DNA of 52,166 nt. It comes from a virus (lineage: Duplodnaviria > Heunggongvirae > Uroviricota > Caudoviricetes). Below are positions 2,547 to 52,166 of the stretch, piece after piece. The translations under genes were made by a program, and so were the position numbers. Every line of letters begins with the position of its first letter. Position 1 is the stretch's first letter. The DNA is taken from IMG/VR virus record IMGVR_UViG_2844443253_000003; one strand, 5' to 3'. Below the pieces are notes generated by a model. It searched no databases, had not been told where the DNA came from, and saw nothing but the letters and a program-made list of their open reading frames with translations.

Positions 2547-3287
2547 TCACTCTCCTTTGATGCGAATGCCAGCAGCGCGCTCGGCTTCACTTTGTTCCCA
2601 AAACCACTTGTGAAGCGCCATAAGCTTTTCGTCAATCGGTGCATATTTGCGATTAAAGTAGGCCTGAGCATCTTTCTCAGATTCGTCCGGTAATTCGCCA
2701 GGGCCAAACAGTGTGTTATAAATCCATGCCAGTCCGCTCTTAGCGTCGCCAGTTGCCTGCCATTCGATAATGGCAGCCTGCATGACCAGAATGTTTTTCC
2801 CGATTAATAGGTCCAGTTCTTTGAACCGGTTGCGGATGTATGCATTCTCGCTTTGTAATTTCGCGTTGCGCTTTTCTGAGGCTTCAAGTAACGCCTGCTT
2901 ATCGCGTAGCGCTTCTTCCAGTTCAGCAACATGGCATTCACTATCAATAAGGTTGTTCTCTGCGGCTTCCTGCTCTGATTTTCGCAGCAAAGCAGCATAC
3001 TTTAATGCGTCCTGTGCTTTCTGGAATTTAAGTGCATAGTCAGTGGCGATTTTTTCCAGTTCAGCGATGCGCTGTTTTGCTGTTTCCCGCTCATCCAGCA
3101 ATGCCAGCACGGTTTCTGGTCCGGCCAGAAGTTTGAAGGCGTTGAGCGCATCAATATCCACGTCGTAATCTTTAAGCTCCTGCTCGCTTAACAAATCATC
3201 ATCAACTGGCAACATTAACAGGCGTTCCATTGCTGGAATTGCACGTTCCGCCGCCTCACGCAGTGCCTGATAGTCAATCTCGCTCAT
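2547..3287 (-). CDS. Ead/Ea22-like early protein (paralog 1)
   Basis: 246 aa; shares INYQALRE / RIAELE motifs with 3525-4226 and 4524-5039. Confidence 0.55.
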   Translation of the reverse strand: MSEIDYQALREAAERAIPAMERLLMLPVDDDLLSEQELKDYDVDIDALNAFKLLAGPETVLALLDERETAKQRIAELEKIATDYALKFQKAQDALKYAALLRKSEQEAAENNLIDSECHVAELEEALRDKQALLEASEKRNAKLQSENAYIRNRFKELDLLIGKNILVMQAAIIEWQATGDAKSGLAWIYNTLFGPGELPDESEKDAQAYFNRKYAPIDEKLMALHKWFWEQSEAERAAGIRIKGE

Positions 3288-3561
3288 TGGTTGCCTCCTG
3301 TTTTTCTGCCTTCAACACCATGCGAGAACCATCATCCAGTTCCCACGCGATCTCACCACCTTCAACCATGACCAGTCGCCACACCAATTGAGCAGCCTCA
3401 TTGGTAACATCACGACCTAGATCATTGCCAACGCGCACACGTCCACCTTCAACATCGCGCATTTTTTCCAGCATGATAGTTTTTGATAGCGGTGAAAAAA
3501 CAAGCTGTAGTCGTGCTGAATTACTCACTGGTTGTCTCCTTTGCGAATCTGTTCCGCCCAT
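3274..3561 (-). CDS. hypothetical phage protein
   Basis: 95-aa ORF in gene string. Confidence 0.4.
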   Translation of the reverse strand: MGGTDSQRRQPVSNSARLQLVFSPLSKTIMLEKMRDVEGGRVRVGNDLGRDVTNEAAQLVWRLVMVEGGEIAWELDDGSRMVLKAEKQEATNERD

Positions 3562-13391: not shown

Positions 13392-13617
13392 TGAACGCAA
13401 TATTCACAAGCAATGCGTGGTGTGCAACCAGCACAAAAGCGGAAATCTCGTTCCGTATCGCGTCGAACTGATTAGCCGCATCGGGCAGGAAGCAGTAGAC
13501 GAAATCGAATCAAACCATAACCGCCATCGCTGGACTGTCGAAGAGTGCAGGGCCATCAAGGCGGAGTATCAGCAGAAACTCAAAGACCTGCGAAACAGCA
13601 GAAGTGAGGCCGCATGA
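13318..13617 (+). pseudogene. ninG: NinG C-terminal fragment (no N-terminal half, no ATG)
   Basis: [16 protein letters not shown]...[43 protein letters not shown]...NSRSEAA matches the C-terminus of lambda NinG as I recall it. Confidence 0.6.
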
Positions 13618-13660
13618 CGTTCTCAGTAAAAACCATTCCAGATCACAAGGGAGAAGGCGC

Positions 13661-14149
13661 ATGGGCATAAGAGAACTAAACCTCACCAAAGAACAGCACG
13701 AGTGGCTGAATGGCTGGCTTGAACTGTGGGGCGCATGGGTTTATTCAGGTCGTCTGGAAAAGCGCATGAGCAGCGTAATAGCTAAGTTCATGGAGAGCGT
13801 AGAGCCGGGAAGAGTTATGACAAGGCCAATGTGTAATGATGATGATGGAATGTTGATTTCTCAGGTCGTCGATTCCGTCATGTACATTGACAAGAAAGCC
13901 TTTGGCATCCTCCTCAGCTACTACGCCCACGGCTCTTCCAAGCACGCCATTGCATCTTACTATCATCGCGTCGCAAGACCTCGCAAGATGTTATGCCGGG
14001 GCGGCGGGCGCATTCAAAAACCATCGCTCGCAACCTGTCGACGGGAAGTTGACGAAATCCTCAATGCCTCGTTGTTTATGATTTACCCGGTTCTGGATAG
14101 TGCGTTTAAAAACCGGAAACGTGTAGAGAAAATTAAACATGTAGCATAG
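13661..14149 (+). CDS. Q: late-gene antiterminator Q (QuuD/Q21-like family), start at MGIRELNL
   Basis: motifs WGAW and RPMCNDDDGMLIS / ILLSYYAHG resemble the E. coli QuuD pattern; position before tRNAs and lysis genes. Confidence 0.6.
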   Translation: MGIRELNLTKEQHEWLNGWLELWGAWVYSGRLEKRMSSVIAKFMESVEPGRVMTRPMCNDDDGMLISQVVDSVMYIDKKAFGILLSYYAHGSSKHAIASYYHRVARPRKMLCRGGGRIQKPSLATCRREVDEILNASLFMIYPVLDSAFKNRKRVEKIKHVA

Positions 14150-14240: not shown

Positions 14241-14315
14241 GGGTCAGTCGTATAAAGGTCATTACGGAAGGCTGTTAACCTTCTTATCGTGGTTCGAGTC
14301 CACGCTGTCCCGCCA
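14241..14315 (+). tRNA. phage-encoded tRNA-Asn (anticodon GTT)
   Basis: hand-folded cloverleaf: anticodon loop CTGTTAA, T-arm CGTGGTTCGAGTCCACG, 3' CCA; one mismatch each in acceptor and D stems. Confidence 0.6.
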
Positions 14316-14320
14316 AACAT

Positions 14321-14396
14321 GCTGGTTTAGCTCCAATGGTAGAGCAGTCGCCTTGTAAGCGAATGGGTAGCGGTTCAAGTCCGTTAACCAGCACCA
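14321..14396 (+). tRNA. phage-encoded tRNA-Thr (anticodon TGT)
   Basis: hand-folded cloverleaf: acceptor GCTGGTT/AACCAGC, D-arm GCTCCAATGGTAGAGC, anticodon loop CTTGTAA, T-loop TTCAAGT, 3' ACCA. Confidence 0.7.
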
Positions 14397-14962: not shown

Positions 14963-15422
14963 TCAACGTAAGGCGTTCCTCGATATGCTGGCGTGGTCAG
15001 AGGGAACTGATAACGGACGTCAGAAAACCAGAAATCATGGTTATGACGTCATTGTTGGCGGAGAGCTATTCACTGATTACTCCGATCACCCTCGCAAACT
15101 TGTCACGCTAAACCCAAAACTCAAATCAACAGCAGCCGGACGTTACCAGCTTCTTTCCCGTTGGTGGGATGCCTACCGCAAGCAGCTTGGACTGAAAGAC
15201 TTCTCTCCGAAAAGCCAGGACGCTGTGGCACTGCAACAGATTAAAGAGCGTGGCGCTTTACCGATGATTGATCGCGGTGATATCCGTCAGGCTATCGACC
15301 GTTGCAGCAATATCTGGGCTTCACTGCCGGGCGCTGGTTATGGTCAGTTCGAGCATAAGGCTGACAGCCTGATTGCAAAATTCAAAGAGGCTGGCGGAAC
15401 GGTCAGAGAGATTGAGGTATGA
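14946..15422 (+). CDS. R: endolysin (lambda R-like lytic transglycosylase)
   Basis: 158 aa beginning [39 protein letters not shown]. Confidence 0.9.
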
Positions 15423-15856
15423 ACAGAGTAACCGCGATTATCTCCGCTCTGGTTATCTGCATCATCGTCTGCCTGTCATGGGCGGTTAATCATTACCGTG
15501 ATAACGCCATCACTTACAAAAAGCAGCGTGATAAGGCCGCATCCATTATTACTGACATGCAGAAGCGTCAACGTGATGTAGCTGAACTCGATGCCAGATA
15601 TACAAAGGAGCTTGCTGATGCTAACGCGACTATCGAAAGTCTTCGTGCTGATGTTTCTGCTGGTCGTAAGTGGCTGCACGTCGCCGCCACCTGTGCAAAG
15701 TCAACGACCGGAGCCAGCGGCATGGGCGATGGAGAAAGCCCAAGACTTACAGCAGATGCTGAACTCAATTATTACCGTCTCCGAAGCGGAATCGACAGGA
15801 TAACCGCGCAGGTTAACTACCTGCAGGAGTACATCAGGATGCAATGCCTTCGATGA
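15419..15856 (+). CDS. Rz: i-spanin Rz
   Basis: 145 aa with N-terminal TM segment [20 protein letters not shown]; follows endolysin. Confidence 0.85.
15618..15803 (+). CDS. Rz1: o-spanin Rz1 lipoprotein embedded in +1 frame of Rz
   Basis: embedded ORF with lipobox-like LLVVSGC and Pro-rich tail; start codon uncertain. Confidence 0.55.
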
Positions 15857-16200
15857 TAGCGATAATTTTACTCATCATACTTCACATCTGGCTCTGTAGA
15901 CAGGGTGGTGATCACTTCTGGAGTGAATCCAGATTAAACATCTCATTGCTGATGCTTGACGTTAAGCATATGGCGCGCGGTAAGGGGCTGCGTTGAGATA
16001 AGAGCCAGTCATTACAAATACCAGGATTTAGCCTCGCATTTGCGGGGCTTTTTTACATCTGCAGTAAACCGCGCATCGCAGCGCGTAACAATCCCGAGTC
16101 TTTCAGAAAGCTGAGCCTGAGAACTGCCGTATATGGTGGCGACCATCTCGGGGCGGCTTTTCTGTGCGAACAGGCTCATCTTTCTAAAAGGTAAGACGCT

Positions 16201-16722
16201 ATGAATATCGTTCCACTAAATTACAAAGGCGAACCTATCCGCTTCAATACTGATGGCTGGATTAATGCCACTGATATTGCAAAACGTTTCGGGAAGCGTC
16301 TGGATCACTGGTTGTCCAACGCTGAAACTCTCGAATACGTTAGAGCTCTGGATGAGGTTTATTCAGGTGAACCATCGAAAATTCTACATACCCGTGATTC
16401 CGGGTATGTAAAAACAAGCAAGGCACGAAAGGACAGGGGCGGCGGAACATGGCTGCATCCAAAGTTATCAGTTGCCTTTGCAAGATGGTGCGATCCGAAA
16501 TTCTCCGTATGGTGCGACCTGCACATTGATAGTCTGCTTCGCGGTGAACTGACTGAGCAGCAGAAATATGAGCAAGCATGTCGCATTCGCGATGACCGGA
16601 AATCGAAAGCCAGCAATGGGGCAAGAGAGATGGCTCGCTGGCGATGGGATAAGCCGGTTATTGAAGCAAATGTCGAGTACTGGCGCGAGCAACTGCAGTT
16701 GACTCTCGATATTGCGTGCTGA
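16201..16722 (+). CDS. KilA-N domain protein (antirepressor-like N-terminal DNA-binding domain)
   Basis: N-terminus NTDGWINATDIAKRFGKRLDHWL typical of KilA-N/Bro-N; sits between lysis and terminase. Confidence 0.55.
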   Translation: MNIVPLNYKGEPIRFNTDGWINATDIAKRFGKRLDHWLSNAETLEYVRALDEVYSGEPSKILHTRDSGYVKTSKARKDRGGGTWLHPKLSVAFARWCDPKFSVWCDLHIDSLLRGELTEQQKYEQACRIRDDRKSKASNGAREMARWRWDKPVIEANVEYWREQLQLTLDIAC

Positions 16723-17146
16723 TGGCAAACGCAAAACTGCGTTATCGGAAAAATCAAAGCATTACGAGAACTGAGCAACAGCTATCCATTACAAAGCCCA
16801 TCTACGGGTGGGCTTGATAATGAAACCGGAATTTATTCTGGGTAACCAGTTACGGCAGTACAGCGAAACAACCCAAGCCAGTAAGTGGGGAAATAACACT
16901 GGCAGCCACTGAAAGATGAACCTCCAGCCTTATGGCAAAAAAGATTCTTTGTGGTGGCGGACTGATGGAAAGACATCGGTTATTGCAGAGACCATTCAAT
17001 GAGTGGTCTCGACAATGGCTTATACCCTACACGGGATAACTTAACTGATATCCCCACAAGCGGATAAAGAGATTCTCAATGTCAGGAATCTACTTTTAGT
17101 CCTAGTAATGATGAACTAGATATCAGTTGAGTCGCTTGGGTGGTGA

Positions 17147-17383
17147 TTACGATTCTGCTTCAAACTCAGAAATTAGTTGATGAACACGTTCAGTATATGA
17201 TGGGTTAGAACCTAGAAACTCTTCCACTGTCTGAATGGTTTCATCACCCTCCCATTCAAAATGGCTCACAGGCGACGAATGACCAACCCTGACTTGGTAG
17301 GAGCCATTGTCCAATTTGTCCAGGAATATATAAGTTTCATTATCATGACCTGTATTTCGGTAAAAAATTTGCTTTGAGTTCAT
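17147..17383 (-). CDS. hypothetical small protein (78 aa), AT-rich, opposite strand to neighbours
   Basis: ORF about 38% GC in lysis-terminase gap, antisense to flanking late genes. Confidence 0.4.
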   Translation of the reverse strand: MNSKQIFYRNTGHDNETYIFLDKLDNGSYQVRVGHSSPVSHFEWEGDETIQTVEEFLGSNPSYTERVHQLISEFEAES

Positions 17384-17407
17384 TAAAGAAACCCTCTAGA
17401 GAAAACT

Positions 17408-17959
17408 ATGGCACTCACCGACAAGCAAGAAATGTTCTGTCGCGAGTACCTCATCGATTTAAACGCCACGCAAGCGGCTATTCGGGCGGGGTACAGCGCA
17501 AAGACAGCTAACCGTACCGCATCCGAAAACCTGTCAAAACCTGACATCAAGTTAAGAATCGCCGAACTGAAAGCGCAACGCAATGATCTTATTGGTATTA
17601 ATGCAGAATATGTACTTAATCGCCTTATTGAAATCGACCAGATGGATGTGCTCGACATTCTCCTGCAAAACGGTGAGCTAAAGCCCATTAAAGACTGGCC
17701 TAAGGTATGGCGCACAACGCTATCAGGAATGGATGTCGTGGAGATGGCATCCGCAGATAGCGCCGCACTTCTGAAGAAAATCAAATGGCCTGATAAGGTT
17801 AAAAACCTTGAATTGCTTGGGCGTCATGTTTCTGTTCAGGCGTTTAAAGACAACGTCAAAAATGAAGTGACTGGCGCTGATGGAGGACCAGTCAGAACAG
17901 AAATTACCAACTTAACGCCGGAGCAGGCTGCAGAGGCGTATAGAAAAATGATGGGCTAA
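17408..17959 (+). CDS. terminase small subunit
   Basis: 183 aa beginning [42 protein letters not shown] (terminase small-subunit signature as I recall it); immediately upstream of terL. Confidence 0.75.
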
Positions 17960-17961
17960 GT

Positions 17962-18136
17962 ATGCCGTTACCATTCCCCTTCGATTTTAAACATCCTGAT
18001 TACCAGATGGTTTTTGAATGGCGGATGGAACGCCTACAGCGCATTCGCCAGAATCCTGAAATATTGCCCGTATTGAAGCAGTTTTACCGAACCAATCCGG
18101 CTCAGTTCATCATCGACTGGGGCATGACAACGGACC
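17962..18136 (+). pseudogene. terminase large subunit, N-terminal fragment (split by IS911)
   Basis: ORF reads ...[10 protein letters not shown] then enters the IS911 left inverted repeat at 18137; continues in frame at 19386. Confidence 0.75.
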
Positions 18137-18208
18137 TGAAGTGGCACACTGAATTTGGCCACCTGAACAGAGGTGATATGCTCACCTCAGAACAACACAG
18201 GTGCTCCA

Positions 18209-19377
<1,169 letters not shown>

Positions 19378-19385
19378 CCACTTCA

Positions 19386-20837
19386 GACCCGCGTAATATT
19401 GATTATGGCCTGCCGGTGACCATTCCGTTTTTACTCTTCCCTAAGCAGGAGGAGTGGATCCACTGGATTATGGAACGCTGGGGCAATCGGGAGAATGGTA
19501 TTACCGAAAAATCCCGTGAAATGGGGCTCAGTTGGACCGCGATCGGACTGGCCTGCTCGCTTTGTCTCTTCAACAAAGAAATGGTTATCGGTTTCGGCTC
19601 CCGTAAAGAGGAATACGTCGACAGCACTGGTGACCCGAAAGCATTGTTCTGGAAGGCACGCAAGTTCGTGGAAACGCTACCTGTAGAGTTTCGCGGTTCG
19701 TGGAGTGAGAAGAAGCACGCGCCATATATGCGTGTTGAGTTTCCTGAAACTGGTGCCGTTATCAAAGGCGAGGCTGGCGATAATATTGGTCGTGGTGACC
19801 GTACCACGCTTTATCTGGTTGATGAGGCTGCATTCCTTCAGCGTCCTCTACTGATTGATGCGGCGTTGTCACAAACGACGCGTTGCCGTATCGACCTGAG
19901 TTCAGTTAACGGCATGGCTAACCCGTTCGCTCAGAAGCGTCATGGCGGGAAGATACCGGTATTCACATTCCACTGGCGGGATGATCCTCGCAAGGATGAA
20001 GAGTGGTATCGCAGGGAATGCGAGAAAATCGATAATCCGGTGGTGGTGGCACAGGAACTTGATCTGAACTACAGCGCATCAGCGGAAGGCGTTCTGATTC
20101 CATCCGAATGGGTACAGGCTGCCGTTGATGCGCATATCAAACTGGGTATCCAGCCAACAGGCAAACGACTTGGCGCGATGGATGTCGCCGACGAAGGCAG
20201 GGACAAAAATGCCTTTTCCACCCGTCATGGCTTCCTCCTGGAAAATGTGCGGGAATGGTCCGGTGTGGGCAGCGACATTTATCAGTCCGTCGAGAAGGTT
20301 TTCGGCTTTTGCGAACAGGACAACCTCGAAGAGTTTCGCTTTGACGAGGACGGGCTGGGCGCTGGCGTTCGCGGCGATGCACGCGCTATCAACGAACTGC
20401 GTAACGCTGCGCGTCGACCGTCAATACTTGCCACACCGTTTCGAGGTAGTGGCGCGGTATTTGATCCGGATGATGAAGCTGTTCGCGGGGACAACGGGCA
20501 AGCCGCACGTCTGAACAAGGACTTCTTCGCTAACGCCAAAGCCCAGAGCTGGTGGCGGTTACGTAAACTTTTTCAGAATACCTGGCGCGCCGTGGTTGAA
20601 GGTATGGCTTACAACCCGGACGAAATCATCTCAATCAGCAGTAGCATGGCACTCAAAGATAAACTCATCATCGAGCTTTCGCAGCCGACCTATTCCATTA
20701 ATGGTGTGGGAAAAATCGTTATTGATAAACAGCCTGATGGAACCCGATCGCCAAACCTTGCCGACTCGGTGATGATCAACTATGCCCCAATGAATTCAGC
20801 CCTGAACATCTGGGAGCTGCTAGGGAGACAGGCCTGA
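19386..20837 (+). pseudogene. terminase large subunit, C-terminal remainder
   Basis: frame continues DPRNIDYG... after IS911; ATPase-like segment [11 protein letters not shown]. Confidence 0.75.
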
Positions 20838-39464: not shown

Positions 39465-39872
39465 ATGTCATATTTTTATTCTGCATCGACAAACGGATTT
39501 TATTTGACTGAATTTCACGGCACCAATATTCCTGATGATGCAGTGGAAATCTCGGAATCAGAGTGGAAAACACTGATTAACTCACAGAGTGTCACAAAAA
39601 TGATTACCTGTGGTGAGGACGGTCACCCTGTCATTGTTGACCGTCCTTCTCCAACACTAGAACAATTAGCCTTAATAAATGATGAAAAGAAATCTGCACT
39701 GATAGCAGAGGCAACGAATGTAATAGCTCCGCTTCAGGATGCGGTTGATTTAGGTATGGCAACAGATGATGAAACGAAACTATTACTGGCATGGAAAAAA
39801 TATCGGGTGCTATTGATGCGTGTTGATATAAAAAATACAGAGTGGCCGAAAAAACCAGAGGGAAATAAATAA
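39465..39872 (+). CDS. tail fiber assembly protein
   Basis: N-terminus [19 protein letters not shown] typical of Tfa proteins. Confidence 0.65.
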
Positions 39873-43146: not shown

Positions 43147-44412
43147 TGAGGTGTACTGGCAATAGCGGACACTACCATTTGTTCTTTTTTTAAGCAGCCA
43201 TCTGATGATATTTTTCCCTGAAGGCTGCCGGGGAGATATTCCCCAGACGAGAGTGACGACGCTGACGATTGTAGAAAATCTCAATGTATTCCCGTATTAC
43301 TGAGATGGCTTCATCCCGGTTATTAAAACGATAGTGGCTCAGGCTCTCATTTTTCAGCGTTCCCCAGAAGCTTTCCATCGGAGCGTTGTCGTAACAGTTA
43401 CCTTTACGCGACATTGATGTTTTCAGACCAAACTGCTCCTGTATGACCCGGTAATCGTATGCGCAGTACTGTGAACCTCGATCAGAGTGGTGGATTAGCC
43501 CGGCAGGTGGGCGCTGGCTCCTGAGCGCCATAAACAGGGCTTTACCTGTCAGCTCTTTTGTCATGCGCTCTCCCATGGCGTAGCCGACAATTTCGCACGT
43601 ATAAACATCTTTGATGCCAGCGAGGTACAACCATCCCTCCTGTGTGGCAACATACGTCAGGTCCGCCACCCAGACCTGATTTGGTGCTGTAGGAGCGAAC
43701 GTCTGGTTCAGCAGATTTGGCGCAACTGGCAGATTGTGGTTCGGGTTCGTAGTCGCTCTGAACTTGCGTTTCTGCTTACAGCGTAGCCTCAGCTCCTTAC
43801 GAAGACGTGCCAGTCGGTCACGACCAACGATGATGCCATTCTCTGCCAGCTCCGTCTGGAGCCGCCGGGTTCCATATGTTTCGCGAGTGCGGATATGTGC
43901 CACCTTAATCTCCGGTTTTAGCCGCTCATCACTTTGTTTTCTGTCTGAGGGTTCATGCTGTACCCAGTTGTAATAACCGCTCCTGGATACACCAAATACC
44001 TGACACATCGCTTCAATGGGAAATTGTTGTCGCCATTGTTCGATTAACGCGTATTTTTCAGCGACTCCTGTGCAAAATACGCTGTTGCTTTTTTTTAATA
44101 TATCTCGCTCAAGGCGAGCTTCATTTAACGCCTTACGCAGTTGCAGAATTTCAGATTCCAGTTCAGCCAGCGTGCGGGAACCAGGAGTACCGAGCCCTTT
44201 TCTGGCGGCGGTAACCCATTGTCCTAAAGTGCCTTCAGGAAGGAATAATCGGGAAGCGTCTTCACTGATCGAAAGTTGATTTTCAAGAACCGTTCTGACA
44301 GCTTCGGCTTTGAACTCTTTAGAGTAACGTTGGGTTTTTCTGCTCATTATTAGCTCCTTCTGATGCCATTCTATTTCAGGAAGGAGTGTCCGTTAAACTC
44401 AGGCTACCTCAG
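43147..44412 (-). mobile_element. IS600 (IS3 family) copy 1, no flanking target duplication
   Basis: ends TGAGGTAGCCTGAGTTTAACGGACACTCC / GGTAGTGTCCGCTATTGCCAGTACACCTCA shared with copies at 47312 and 51306; flanking triplets differ (CCC vs GAC). Confidence 0.85.
43190..44347 (-). CDS. IS600 transposase as a contiguous OrfAB fusion (385 aa)
   Basis: A-run of 8 at the slippery site (vs 7 in copy 2) puts orfA and orfB in one frame. Confidence 0.8.
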   Translation of the reverse strand: MSRKTQRYSKEFKAEAVRTVLENQLSISEDASRLFLPEGTLGQWVTAARKGLGTPGSRTLAELESEILQLRKALNEARLERDILKKSNSVFCTGVAEKYALIEQWRQQFPIEAMCQVFGVSRSGYYNWVQHEPSDRKQSDERLKPEIKVAHIRTRETYGTRRLQTELAENGIIVGRDRLARLRKELRLRCKQKRKFRATTNPNHNLPVAPNLLNQTFAPTAPNQVWVADLTYVATQEGWLYLAGIKDVYTCEIVGYAMGERMTKELTGKALFMALRSQRPPAGLIHHSDRGSQYCAYDYRVIQEQFGLKTSMSRKGNCYDNAPMESFWGTLKNESLSHYRFNNRDEAISVIREYIEIFYNRQRRHSRLGNISPAAFREKYHQMAA

Positions 44413-44509: not shown

Positions 44510-44832
44510 ATGACTAAAAATACTCGTTTTTCCCCCGAAGTCCGTCAACGGGCAGTCCGTATGGTTCTGGAAAGTCAGGGCGAATATGACTCACAATGGG
44601 CGACAATTTGTTCCATTGCCCCAAAGATTGGCTGTACGCCGGAGACTCTGCGTGTCTGGGGTCGCCAGCATGAGCGGGATACCGGGGGCGGTGATGGAGG
44701 GCTCACCACCGCTGAACGTCAGCGTCTGAAAGAGCTGGAGCGTGAAAATCGTGAACTGCGCCGCAGTAACGATATCCTTCGCCAGGCTTCCGCTTATTTT
44801 GCGAAGGCGGAGTTCGACCGCCTCTGGAAAAA

Positions 44833-44836
<4 letters not shown>
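44510..44836 (+). CDS. IS629 OrfA
   Basis: [50 protein letters not shown]. Confidence 0.85.
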
Positions 44837-45719
<883 letters not shown>

Positions 45720-47713: not shown

Positions 47714-48532
47714 ATGTGTCAGGTATTTGGTGTATCCAGGAGCGGTTATTACAACTGGGTACAGCATGAACCCTCAGACAGAAAACAAAGTGATGAGCGG
47801 CTAAAACTGGAGATTAAGGTGGCACATATCCGCACTCGCGAAACATATGGAACCCGGCGGCTCCAGACGGAGCTGGCAGAGAATGGCATCATCGTTGGTC
47901 GTGACCGACTGGCACGTCTTCGTAAGGAGCTAAGGCTACGCTGTAAGCAGAAACGCAAGTTCAGAGCGACTACGAACCCGAACCACAATCTGCCAGTTGC
48001 GCCAAATCTGCTGAACCAGACGTTCGCTCCTACAGCACCAAATCAGGTCTGGGTGGCGGACCTGACGTATGTTGCCACACAGGAGGGATGGTTGTACCTC
48101 GCTGGCATCAAAGATGTTTATACGTGCGAAATTGTCGGCTACGCCATGGGAGAGCGCATGACAAAAGAGCTGACAGGTAAAGCCCTGTTTATGGCGCTCA
48201 GGAGCCAGCGCCCACCTGCCGGGCTAATCCACCACTCTGATCGAGGTTCACAGTACTGCGCATACGATTACCGGGTCATACAGGAGCAGTCTGGTCTGAA
48301 AACATCAATGTCGCGTAAAGGTAACTGTTACGACAACGCTCCGATGGAAAGCTTCTGGGGAACGCTGAAAAATGAGAGCCTGAGCCACTATCGTTTTAAT
48401 AACCGGGATGAAGCCATCTCAGTAATACGGGAATACATTGAGATTTTCTACAATCGTCAGCGTCGTCACTCTCGTCTGGGGAATATCTCCCCGGCAGCCT
48501 TCAGGGAAAAATATCATCAGATGGCTGCTTAA
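47714..48532 (+). CDS. IS600 OrfB (DDE domain)
   Basis: 272 aa in -1 frame relative to orfA; A7 slippery run at 47627-47633. Confidence 0.85.
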   Translation: MCQVFGVSRSGYYNWVQHEPSDRKQSDERLKLEIKVAHIRTRETYGTRRLQTELAENGIIVGRDRLARLRKELRLRCKQKRKFRATTNPNHNLPVAPNLLNQTFAPTAPNQVWVADLTYVATQEGWLYLAGIKDVYTCEIVGYAMGERMTKELTGKALFMALRSQRPPAGLIHHSDRGSQYCAYDYRVIQEQSGLKTSMSRKGNCYDNAPMESFWGTLKNESLSHYRFNNRDEAISVIREYIEIFYNRQRRHSRLGNISPAAFREKYHQMAA

Positions 48533-51305: not shown

Positions 51306-52166
51306 TGAGGTGTACTGGCAATAGCGGACACTACCATTTGTTCTTTTTTAAGCAGCCATCTGATGATATTTTTCCCTGAAGGCTGCCGGGGAGATATTCC
51401 CCAGACGAGAGTGACGACGCTGACGATTGTAGAAAATCTCAATGTATTCCCGTATTACTGAGATGGCTTCATCCCGGTTATTAAAACGATAGTGGCTCAG
51501 GCTCTCATTTTTCAGCGTTCCCCAGAAGCTTTCCATCGGAGCGTTGTCGTAACAGTTACCTTTACGCGACATTGATGTTTTCAGACCAAACTGCTCCTGT
51601 ATGACCCGGTAATCGTATGCGCAGTACTGTGAACCTCGATCAGAGTGGTGGATTAGCCCGGCAGGTGGGCGCTGGCTCCTGAGCGCCATAAACAGGGCTT
51701 TACCTGTCAGCTCTTTTGTCATGCGCTCTCCCATGGCGTAGCCGACAATTTCGCACGTATAAACATCTTTGATGCCAGCGAGGTACAACCATCCCTCCTG
51801 TGTGGCAACATACGTCAGGTCCGCCACCCAGACCTGATTTGGTGCTGTAGGAGCGAACGTCTGGTTCAGCAGATTTGGCGCAACTGGCAGATTGTGGTTC
51901 GGGTTCGTAGTCGCTCTGAACTTGCGTTTCTGCTTACAGCGTAGCCTCAGCTCCTTACGAAGACGTGCCAGTCGGTCACGACCAACGATGATGCCATTCT
52001 CTGCCAGCTCCGTCTGGAGCCGCCGGGTTCCATATGTTTCGCGAGTGCGGATATGTGCCACCTTAATCTCCGGTTTTAGCCGCTCATCACTTTGTTTTCT
52101 GTCTGAGGGTTCATGCTGTACCCAGTTGTAATAACCGCTCCTGGATACACCAAATACCTGACACAT
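51306..52166 (-). mobile_element. IS600 copy 3, partial (runs off window end)
   Basis: right-end repeat and orfB (51348-52166) matching copies 1 and 2. Confidence 0.8.

Follow-up and report, generated by a model that had tools for sequence, protein, structure and literature searches.

The window analysed here is a 52,166-nucleotide (nt) stretch of viral DNA (IMG/VR record IMGVR_UViG_2844443253_000003, Caudoviricetes), which carries a lambdoid, P22-like prophage. We concentrate on the interval 15857-17383, between the lysis and the terminase genes, and above all on a conserved RNA leader encoded on the plus strand immediately upstream of a gene for a KilA-N domain protein. This leader is the most informative feature of the region and was missed in the original prediction, which a model had made from the sequence and which placed a KilA-N gene, a divergent small helix-turn-helix (HTH) gene and an antisense AT-rich gene here. 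Two parts of that prediction turned out to be ordinary, and the third, the HTH gene, to be wrong. Following up the wrong part led to a well-supported, apparently uncatalogued family of RNA leaders in well-studied phages. The central features are the following.

16030-16049, then TTTTTT (to 16055), plus strand: terminator-like hairpin of 8 bp, 6 of them G-C, found by a sequence scan
~16066-16200, plus strand: conserved structured 5' leader of the KilA-N mRNA, ~135 nt
16201-16722, plus strand: KilA-N domain protein, 173 amino acids (aa), isoelectric point (pI) 8.9
16012-16179, minus strand: 55-aa open reading frame (ORF) with an HTH-like stretch, judged spurious

A conserved segment between a terminator and a start codon

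The terminator-like hairpin anticipated upstream of KilA-N is present. At 16030-16055 a G+C-rich hairpin stands directly before a U run, as in intrinsic terminators, and the homologous site is annotated by curators as a rho-independent terminator in four phages (HK544, HK106, phi80 and HK639). A hairpin and T run lie 7-27 nt upstream of the first leader helix (H1, below) in 88 of 113 distinct leaders, versus 4 of 113 shuffled controls. The non-coding gap before KilA-N, first put at about 340 bp, holds up only in part: 15844-15996 is occupied by a 50-aa ORF, after which 204 bp (15997-16200) remain.

Distant BLAST searches with 15960-16260 found conservation from the terminator up to the KilA-N start in phi80, HK106, HK639 and Stx2a phages, as well as in phages of Klebsiella, Enterobacter, Pantoea and Providencia. 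Conservation ends exactly at the start codon of the following gene (KilA-N, Rha or GIY-YIG-like) and is independent of which gene follows; those found directly behind the leader encode KilA-N, Phage_pRha, P22_AR_N, ANT, T5orf172/MUG113 or HNH_3 domains.

Fold and covariation of the leader RNA

Compensatory substitutions in the leader, noticed by eye in the alignment and then demonstrated formally, point to a small hairpin, a long hairpin and a further helix that crosses the latter. All elements are on the plus strand.

16070-74 with 16081-85: helix H1, small hairpin
16093-98 with 16147-52: helix a, crossing the long hairpin
16100-10 with 16180-90: helix f, basal part of the long hairpin
16112-19 with 16171-78: helix d, long hairpin
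16120-23 with 16160-63: helix b-ext, long hairpin
16126-29 with 16154-57: helix b, long hairpin
16133-37 with 16142-46: helix c, long hairpin
16188-91: Shine-Dalgarno (SD) sequence AAGG, within helix f

Two covariance models (CMs) were used, R1 for the nested fold (H1, f, d, b-ext, b and c) and R2 for helix a, which pairs the 5' flank of the long hairpin with an internal loop near the hairpin tip. In the CM alignments 85% of the cells of the nested fold are paired, compared with 37-54% in slid controls, and 25-26 of the 35 pairs have changed on both sides; its covariation score was reached by 0 of 500 shuffles in both alignments and, in one of them (A6), for all five measures. Helix a is better preserved still, with double changes at 6 of 6 pairs, 99.3% pairing over 78 distinct sequences and a score again reached by 0 of 500 shuffles. 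Single-sequence shuffling was uninformative for this helix (p 0.005-0.8), and class permutation was used instead, together with the CM. Across classes, the 5' arm forms a mean of 6.5 Watson-Crick bp with its own 3' segment versus 3.8 with a foreign one, and the sum for own partners was reached in 0 of 100000 permutations. Helices d, b-ext and b contain 45 G-U or U-G cells and 4 unpaired cells, a bias which identifies the plus strand as the structured one.

A segment of this kind, lying at a module boundary with differing genes joined to it, might also be conserved as a DNA-level recombination linker between phage modules that has no function as RNA, and lambdoid phages are known to have conserved sequences at such boundaries. 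Such a linker, however, predicts identity rather than pairing-preserving changes in five helices, and it does not predict G-U pairs on one strand; we regard it as very improbable. Covarying structure, location on the sense strand and an adjoining start codon are the marks of a structured cis-regulatory leader, and all were found. At the level of sequence comparison, ~16066-16200 is shown to be a conserved, folded plus-strand mRNA leader with compensatory base changes.

One 23-codon plus-strand upstream ORF (16133-16204) lies inside the leader, and its TGA overlaps the KilA-N ATG (ATGA). It was set aside, being present only in this sequence class; its start codon is missing from the commonest class of leaders.

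The minus-strand ORF

The original prediction had also pointed to a possible minus-strand ORF of 57 aa at 15996-16169. An ORF that starts with ATG and contains the HTH-like stretch SQAQLSERLGIVTR does exist, with 55 codons and at 16012-16179. If it were a gene, its product would be a small HTH regulator divergent from KilA-N, and a 41-aa version has been annotated in one Salmonella phage record. Its frame, however, is not maintained: in 114 distinct homologous segments, the longest ORF on the minus strand measures 29 aa in the median and less than 30 aa in 62 cases, the frame differs between leader classes, and 1-nt insertions and deletions are visible in the alignment (A3). No family in Pfam, PHROGs, NCBIfam or PADLOC matches the product, HTH profiles included. 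The substitutions in the segment are compensatory for helices of the plus-strand RNA, and the last codons of the ORF run through the terminator hairpin, of which they are the complement. Judged by these comparisons, what reads as an ORF is the opposite strand of a conserved structured RNA and not a gene, and the chance that a regulator is encoded here is negligible.

Relation to known RNAs

Searches of 15700-17500 against Rfam 15 at E values up to 5 returned only chance-level matches of at most 20 bits, and ten loci with divergent copies of the leader (including P22, phi80, HK544 and an Stx2a phage) gave 0 matches at E up to 1. The leader belongs to none of the families in that collection, among them IsrK, AsxR, AgvB, STnc100, c4, riboswitches and ribozymes. 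Nothing is annotated under it in RefSeq among the matches listed from at least 916 E. coli genomes; a literature search for its 16-nt core found no paper, and one for links between KilA-N or Rha and RNA motifs found nothing relevant. The prophage small RNAs Pas, AsxR and AgvB were considered and rejected, as they are located at other positions.

One RNA species from the leader has nevertheless been seen. P22F, one of ten small RNAs of P22 detected by small-RNA sequencing and reverse transcription PCR, is described in the accessible part of the report (PMC13397905, June 2026) as an 89-nt plus-strand RNA that partially overlaps ORF201 and whose function is not known. It lies (NC_002371 39550-39638) inside the CM match in P22 (39498-39657), on the same strand, and its 3' end is 6 nt before the conserved rha start; it is homologous to the leader and equals most of the long hairpin plus the SD sequence. 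Whereas P22F is presented there, as far as the accessible text goes, without family, structure or covariation (PMC13397905), the leader forms a family across phages of Enterobacterales. To our knowledge this family, its structure and its link to particular gene classes are undescribed. The leader is a candidate for a new Rfam family and supplies the structural and family context for P22F.

The existence of P22F raises the question of whether a small RNA equivalent to it (~16108-16195 in the window) could be the main product of the locus, made by processing or by termination at an internal U run, and acting in trans or on its own read-through isoform in the manner of IsrK. P22F is a discrete species, and its authors themselves draw the analogy with IsrK in the text available (PMC13397905); that RNA, from the Gifsy-1 prophage, is likewise encoded immediately before an ORF and a gene of the antirepressor type (PMC4825925, accessible text), and its read-through isoform is reported there to be translationally inactive (PMC4825925, PMC13397905). 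IsrK has its own promoter, whereas the leader lies behind the lysis genes and our scan (below) detected no promoter for it; nor does the Rfam model of IsrK match the leader. Within the leader, helices b and b-ext and the UUUUCU behind them look like a terminator, but the U run is itself paired and covaries, one A-U pair being replaced by G-C in 20-21 sequences.

As to processing, a long hairpin of ~27 bp would in principle be enough for RNase III, but the ends of P22F are unlike the 2-nt staggered cut of that enzyme and its 3' end lies past the U run. No targets of such an RNA are known, and we consider it an unlikely main product.

A proposed translational gate

The basal helix f pairs a CUUUC-type anti-SD sequence with AAAGG, which contains the SD. 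The predicted pairing probability of the SD has a median of 0.84 and is above 0.7 in 47 of 65 variants, the upstream partner being the same throughout, and in the class with a 7-nt insertion the inserted ACCU can be read as pairing with AGGU of the SD. For 16066-16206 the minimum free energy (MFE) structure, at -48.9 kcal/mol, is the long hairpin. If helix a is imposed, the optimum rises to -34.3 kcal/mol, so that helix a costs ~14 kcal/mol in the full leader; when the transcript stops just past its 3' arm, however, helix a is part of the MFE structure in 97 of 114 variants.

From these predictions we propose, with a probability of roughly 0.6, that the leader gates translation of the downstream gene through an SD-hiding hairpin that competes with helix a. 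Helix a would form first on the nascent transcript and delay closure of the SD-sequestering hairpin, or might alternatively be stabilised by some factor. The SD would be open only while helix a holds and closed afterwards, confining translation to a time window or a condition and otherwise holding the output of DNA-binding, potentially toxic genes low. Such a gate would suit the genes found downstream, of which at least Rha is recorded as harmful: a note in the phi80 record describes an IHF-dependent toxicity, with harm to phage growth in IHF-deficient hosts. No IHF consensus site was seen by eye in the leader.

A comparable logic is known from the 5' untranslated region of the MS2 maturation gene, from lambda cIII mRNA and from hok mRNA, in which translation is controlled by alternative or delayed RNA folding. 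There, as proposed here, the SD is sequestered by a long-range helix that competes with an earlier one. These leaders have no sequence relation to ours, and the kinetics of the latter are suggested by prefix folding only.

We think that helix a and the long hairpin are alternatives rather than parts of a static pseudoknot, because helix a has its 5' arm right at the base of a ~27-bp stack and the partner of that arm near the tip. This is a geometric argument, made without computation, and the same geometry bears on a different reading, in which all helices coexist as a pseudoknotted aptamer and the RNA is a riboswitch or protein-binding switch whose ligand stabilises helix a and thereby frees or locks the SD. 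Both crossing sets of helices covary, the unpaired UGAGRA, the GU after helix b, GGGC and CUGUG are invariant across classes, and helices with a pseudoknot and an SD-sequestering element resemble riboswitch architecture in general. The invariant motifs are, however, partly imposed by the search pattern, and divergent copies found with the CM have CCGUG, CUACG or CUGAG. Coexistence also looks sterically hard, notably in the 7-nt-insertion class with its longer helix f, and the downstream genes suggest no ligand. We hold such an aptamer to be unlikely, if somewhat less so than a small RNA as the main product.

How the leader comes to be transcribed also bears on the proposed gate. A promoter scan of 15400-17900 found 0 sigma-70-like sites, against 4.0 expected in shuffles, and so offers no candidate promoter either for the leader or for the 78-aa gene described below. 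As a terminator precedes most leader variants and no promoter was found, the leader is probably read only by Q-modified, terminator-resistant polymerase.

Several points weigh against the gate and the structures on which it is built. Raw MAFFT alignments give only 79% pairing overall and 58% for helix a, because register slips leave helices a and f mis-registered; three b/b-ext pairs are 99.6% paired even there, with 12 compensatory sequences. The CM alignments were fitted to the structures, which inflates the pairing counts; given the distinct pair types and the slid controls, a chance origin of the covariation is very unlikely all the same. A candidate helix e (16161-65 with 16170-74, closed by a GNRA loop), considered as part of the ON state, is lost in the divergent copies and was dropped. 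Predicted sequestration is weaker, at 0.34-0.6, in the subclass with an AAGGC-type SD. The link between structure and translation is predicted from in-silico folding, with pseudoknots outside the folding model, and the context of a Q-antiterminated late mRNA is assumed, no promoter-like site having been found. Finally, P22F accumulates, which could point to an RNA that is processed or acts in trans and not purely to a gate in cis.

More tentatively, the leader may represent a new class of RNA switch, working through a ligand, a protein or folding kinetics, that is common to P22, phi80, HK97-like and Stx phages and times the translation of antirepressor-like and KilA/Rha-type genes, with helix a and the SD hairpin as its two states. 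We think this doubtful at present, though less so than the aptamer; if true, the switch would govern genes that are toxic or affect the decision between lysis and lysogeny. Few unexplained genes of temperate enterobacterial phages, Shiga-toxin phages included, are as common as those of the Rha, KilA-N and Ant types. The covarying leader that they share, and by which their ribosome-binding sites are hidden, provides a testable handle on their control.

Distribution of the leader and the genes behind it

A degenerate pattern for the leader core occurs on at least 120 IMG/VR contigs and, in species-representative genomes, at 49 loci, ~44 of which are in Enterobacterales of several families; the leader is present in at least 916 of 5426 complete E. 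coli genomes, about a sixth. Model R1 also finds weaker, divergent second copies within the same phages, in which every helix is kept with a different sequence. The Stx2a phage LC645411, for example, has copies at 650-806 and 2016-2171. The first stands upstream of the ORF at the Rz position, before a P22_AR_N antirepressor-like gene (791-1360), and the second follows Rz and precedes a Rha-like gene (2158-2709). Five further loci carry such a divergent second copy. One IMG/VR contig has a deletion variant, in which the leader breaks off after CTGTGCGAA and continues with sequence found in the window downstream of KilA-N (~16820), so that the KilA-N gene is lost.

Matches in metagenome-assembled genomes labelled Collinsella, Bacillota, Nanosynbacter and Cellvibrionaceae are full-length and score like E. 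coli copies (two are exact ties); we regard them as mis-binned contigs of enterobacterial phages. The pattern match in Streptomyces is incomplete and seems due to chance.

The annotated starts of P22 rha (ORF201, at 39575) and phi80 rha fall inside the leader, and starting at the ATG conserved in the family would shorten the proteins (to 182 aa in P22). Start codons annotated within it have probably hidden the leader from notice. We suggest that these two starts be corrected and that the small minus-strand ORFs called in the leader be treated as spurious.

The KilA-N gene predicted at 16201-16722 is confirmed as an ORF of 173 codons whose product matches PF04383 over residues 7-114 (85.5 bits against a gathering score of 23.8; E 2.8e-24) and phrog_129 (E 1.4e-58). 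The C-terminal third resembles the Rha/ORF11CD3 segment: residues 118-170 match phrog_518 (Rha-like, E 2.3e-8), and PF10549 (ORF11CD3) scores 16.5 bits, under the cut-off of 25, a gathering score which other genes behind the leader exceed. The gene for the KilA-N protein, with its possible Rha-like C-terminal segment, occupies the slot after Rz that is taken by rha in phi80 and P22 (ORF201); the N-terminal domain of Rha is Phage_pRha in place of KilA-N. In PADLOC, whose models represent anti-phage defence proteins, the KilA-N protein gives only a 30-residue, 24-bit match to the candidate family PDC-S22, and the 78-aa, 55-aa and 50-aa products of the region give none; nothing in these results indicates the immunity, exclusion or abortive-infection functions that the original prediction named as frequent at this slot. 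Of the three products put forward for profile searches, the KilA-N protein alone was matched; the 55-aa and 78-aa products matched nothing.

Between KilA-N and the 78-aa gene

The roughly 420 bp after KilA-N, described at first as lacking long ORFs, contain a structured spacer, the beginning of a gene and a mosaic joint.

16723-16931, plus strand: conserved structured spacer between KilA-N and the DUF2560 remnant
16932-17039, plus strand: 5' remnant of a DUF2560 gene, first 35 codons
~17054-17075, no strand: mosaic joint, where matches end (query 1255-1276)

Together with the KilA-N gene, the spacer is 98.7% identical in P22-like phages of Salmonella. Its RNA fold has a z-score of -3.55 (0 of 200 shuffles), and nt 59-204 of the P22 small RNA P22G, taken from the accessible part of PMC13397905, match 16852-16995 at 96.6%. 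On this sequence evidence 16723-16995 may be a second RNA element.

The plus-strand ORFs 16808-16912 and 16932-17039 have no match in Pfam or PHROGs. The latter is identical in 34 of 35 residues (97%) to the start of a 118-aa protein of a Salmonella phage; the PF10834 domain, at residues 43-114 of the full-length protein, is missing from the remnant. Most relatives of the KilA-N module in E. coli and Salmonella cease to match at the joint, where a module of the 78-aa gene and terS begins. Only 12 of 5426 E. coli genomes contain the complete segment 17040-17410.

The 78-aa minus-strand gene

17147-17383, minus strand: 78-aa orphan gene, pI 4.6, net charge -9, 39% G+C
17408-17959, plus strand: Terminase_2 small subunit (terS), PF03592, E 7.1e-40, constant neighbour of the 78-aa gene

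The AT-rich gene expected on the opposite strand is borne out by its G+C content (39% versus 48% for the whole window) and by homologues of conserved length, which down to 60% identity retain 78-79 aa and a conserved core. The family is small, with 13 clusters among 5.8 billion sequences and 16 representatives among 1.84 billion; a tblastn search of 50,697 phage records gave no match, and neither did Pfam, PHROGs, NCBIfam or PADLOC. By these sequence criteria it is a real but rare orphan gene. Its start codon is 24 bp from that of terS, the two genes being divergent, and in 6 of 7 informative contexts its neighbour, divergently oriented and 24-27 bp away, is a gene for a Terminase_2 small subunit. 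Beyond this pair the large subunits and portals differ between contexts, and the most divergent member is without the adjacency. A relation of the protein to TerS is only suggested by this arrangement.

The AlphaFold2 model of the protein (mean predicted local distance difference test score, pLDDT, 85.8) has a four-stranded sheet and two helices. Its top fold matches are PUR repeat and Whirly-like proteins (Borrelia and Drosophila Pur-alpha), but the likeness is weak, without a sequence-profile match, and the acidity of the protein argues against nucleic-acid binding; a protein-binding or DNA-mimic role would fit better. Late transcription runs antisense through the gene, which is for this reason most likely expressed outside the late phase.

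In one database homologue the first 32 residues of the protein are fused to a 29-residue peptide that also ends the truncated ORF at 17962-18228 of the window. The shared peptide indicates that, in other genomes, the 78-aa gene has itself received a copy of the insertion sequence (IS) responsible for that truncation.

The accessory slot and its surroundings

13604-14149: Q antiterminator, followed by two tRNAs, holin, lysozyme and Rz
15419-15856: Rz, directly preceding the studied interval
15844-15996, plus strand: 50-aa ORF, overlaps Rz at the end of the latter; N-terminus hydrophobic; full-length match to phrog_11822 (E 1.5e-37)
17962-18228: 5' fragment of the presumed TerL gene
18173-18511: IS orfA, HTH_Tnp_1
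18538-19377: IS orfB, rve
19371-20837: remainder of the presumed TerL gene

The interval has piecewise matches to thousands of E. coli prophages and to P22-like, HK97-like and Stx phages, and no record in the E. coli and phage collections spans 80% of it in nucleotide matches. It is, as far as these matches tell, a mosaic accessory slot within the late operon of a P22-like prophage. The variability first ascribed to the region between lysis and terminase is evident in relatives, which differ in gene content there and hold KilA-N, Rha, GIY-YIG-like or other genes; the segment with the 78-aa gene and terS is joined to differing upstream modules. The 50-aa ORF carries a RefSeq annotation as a hypothetical protein in one relative, and phrog_11822 is itself a PHROG of unknown function.

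E. coli LWY24 has a 72-aa minus-strand gene (3157-3375 of the locus extracted from it) in the same slot, directly upstream of a terS of the same type. Its product is unrelated to the 78-aa protein and has no Pfam match, and the slot thus takes alternative small reverse-oriented genes.

The presumed TerL gene appears to be interrupted by an IS3-family element (17962-20837). Pfam matches neither piece (17962-18228 and 19371-20837), and both are read as TerL from their position and from relatives. With this gene split by the insertion, the prophage probably cannot package DNA.

Elsewhere in the window, an ALIL pseudoknot, the frameshift element of IS3-family transposases, marks another IS at 44791-44907 (116 bits). 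Three identical weak model matches (43347-43426, 48296-48375 and 51505-51584) point to a sequence with three copies in the final 9 kb. There are three tRNA genes, one at the window start (115-187) and two between Q and holin (14241-14312 and 14321-14393); the latter pair matches the arrangement in a relative (tRNA-Asn, tRNA-Thr).

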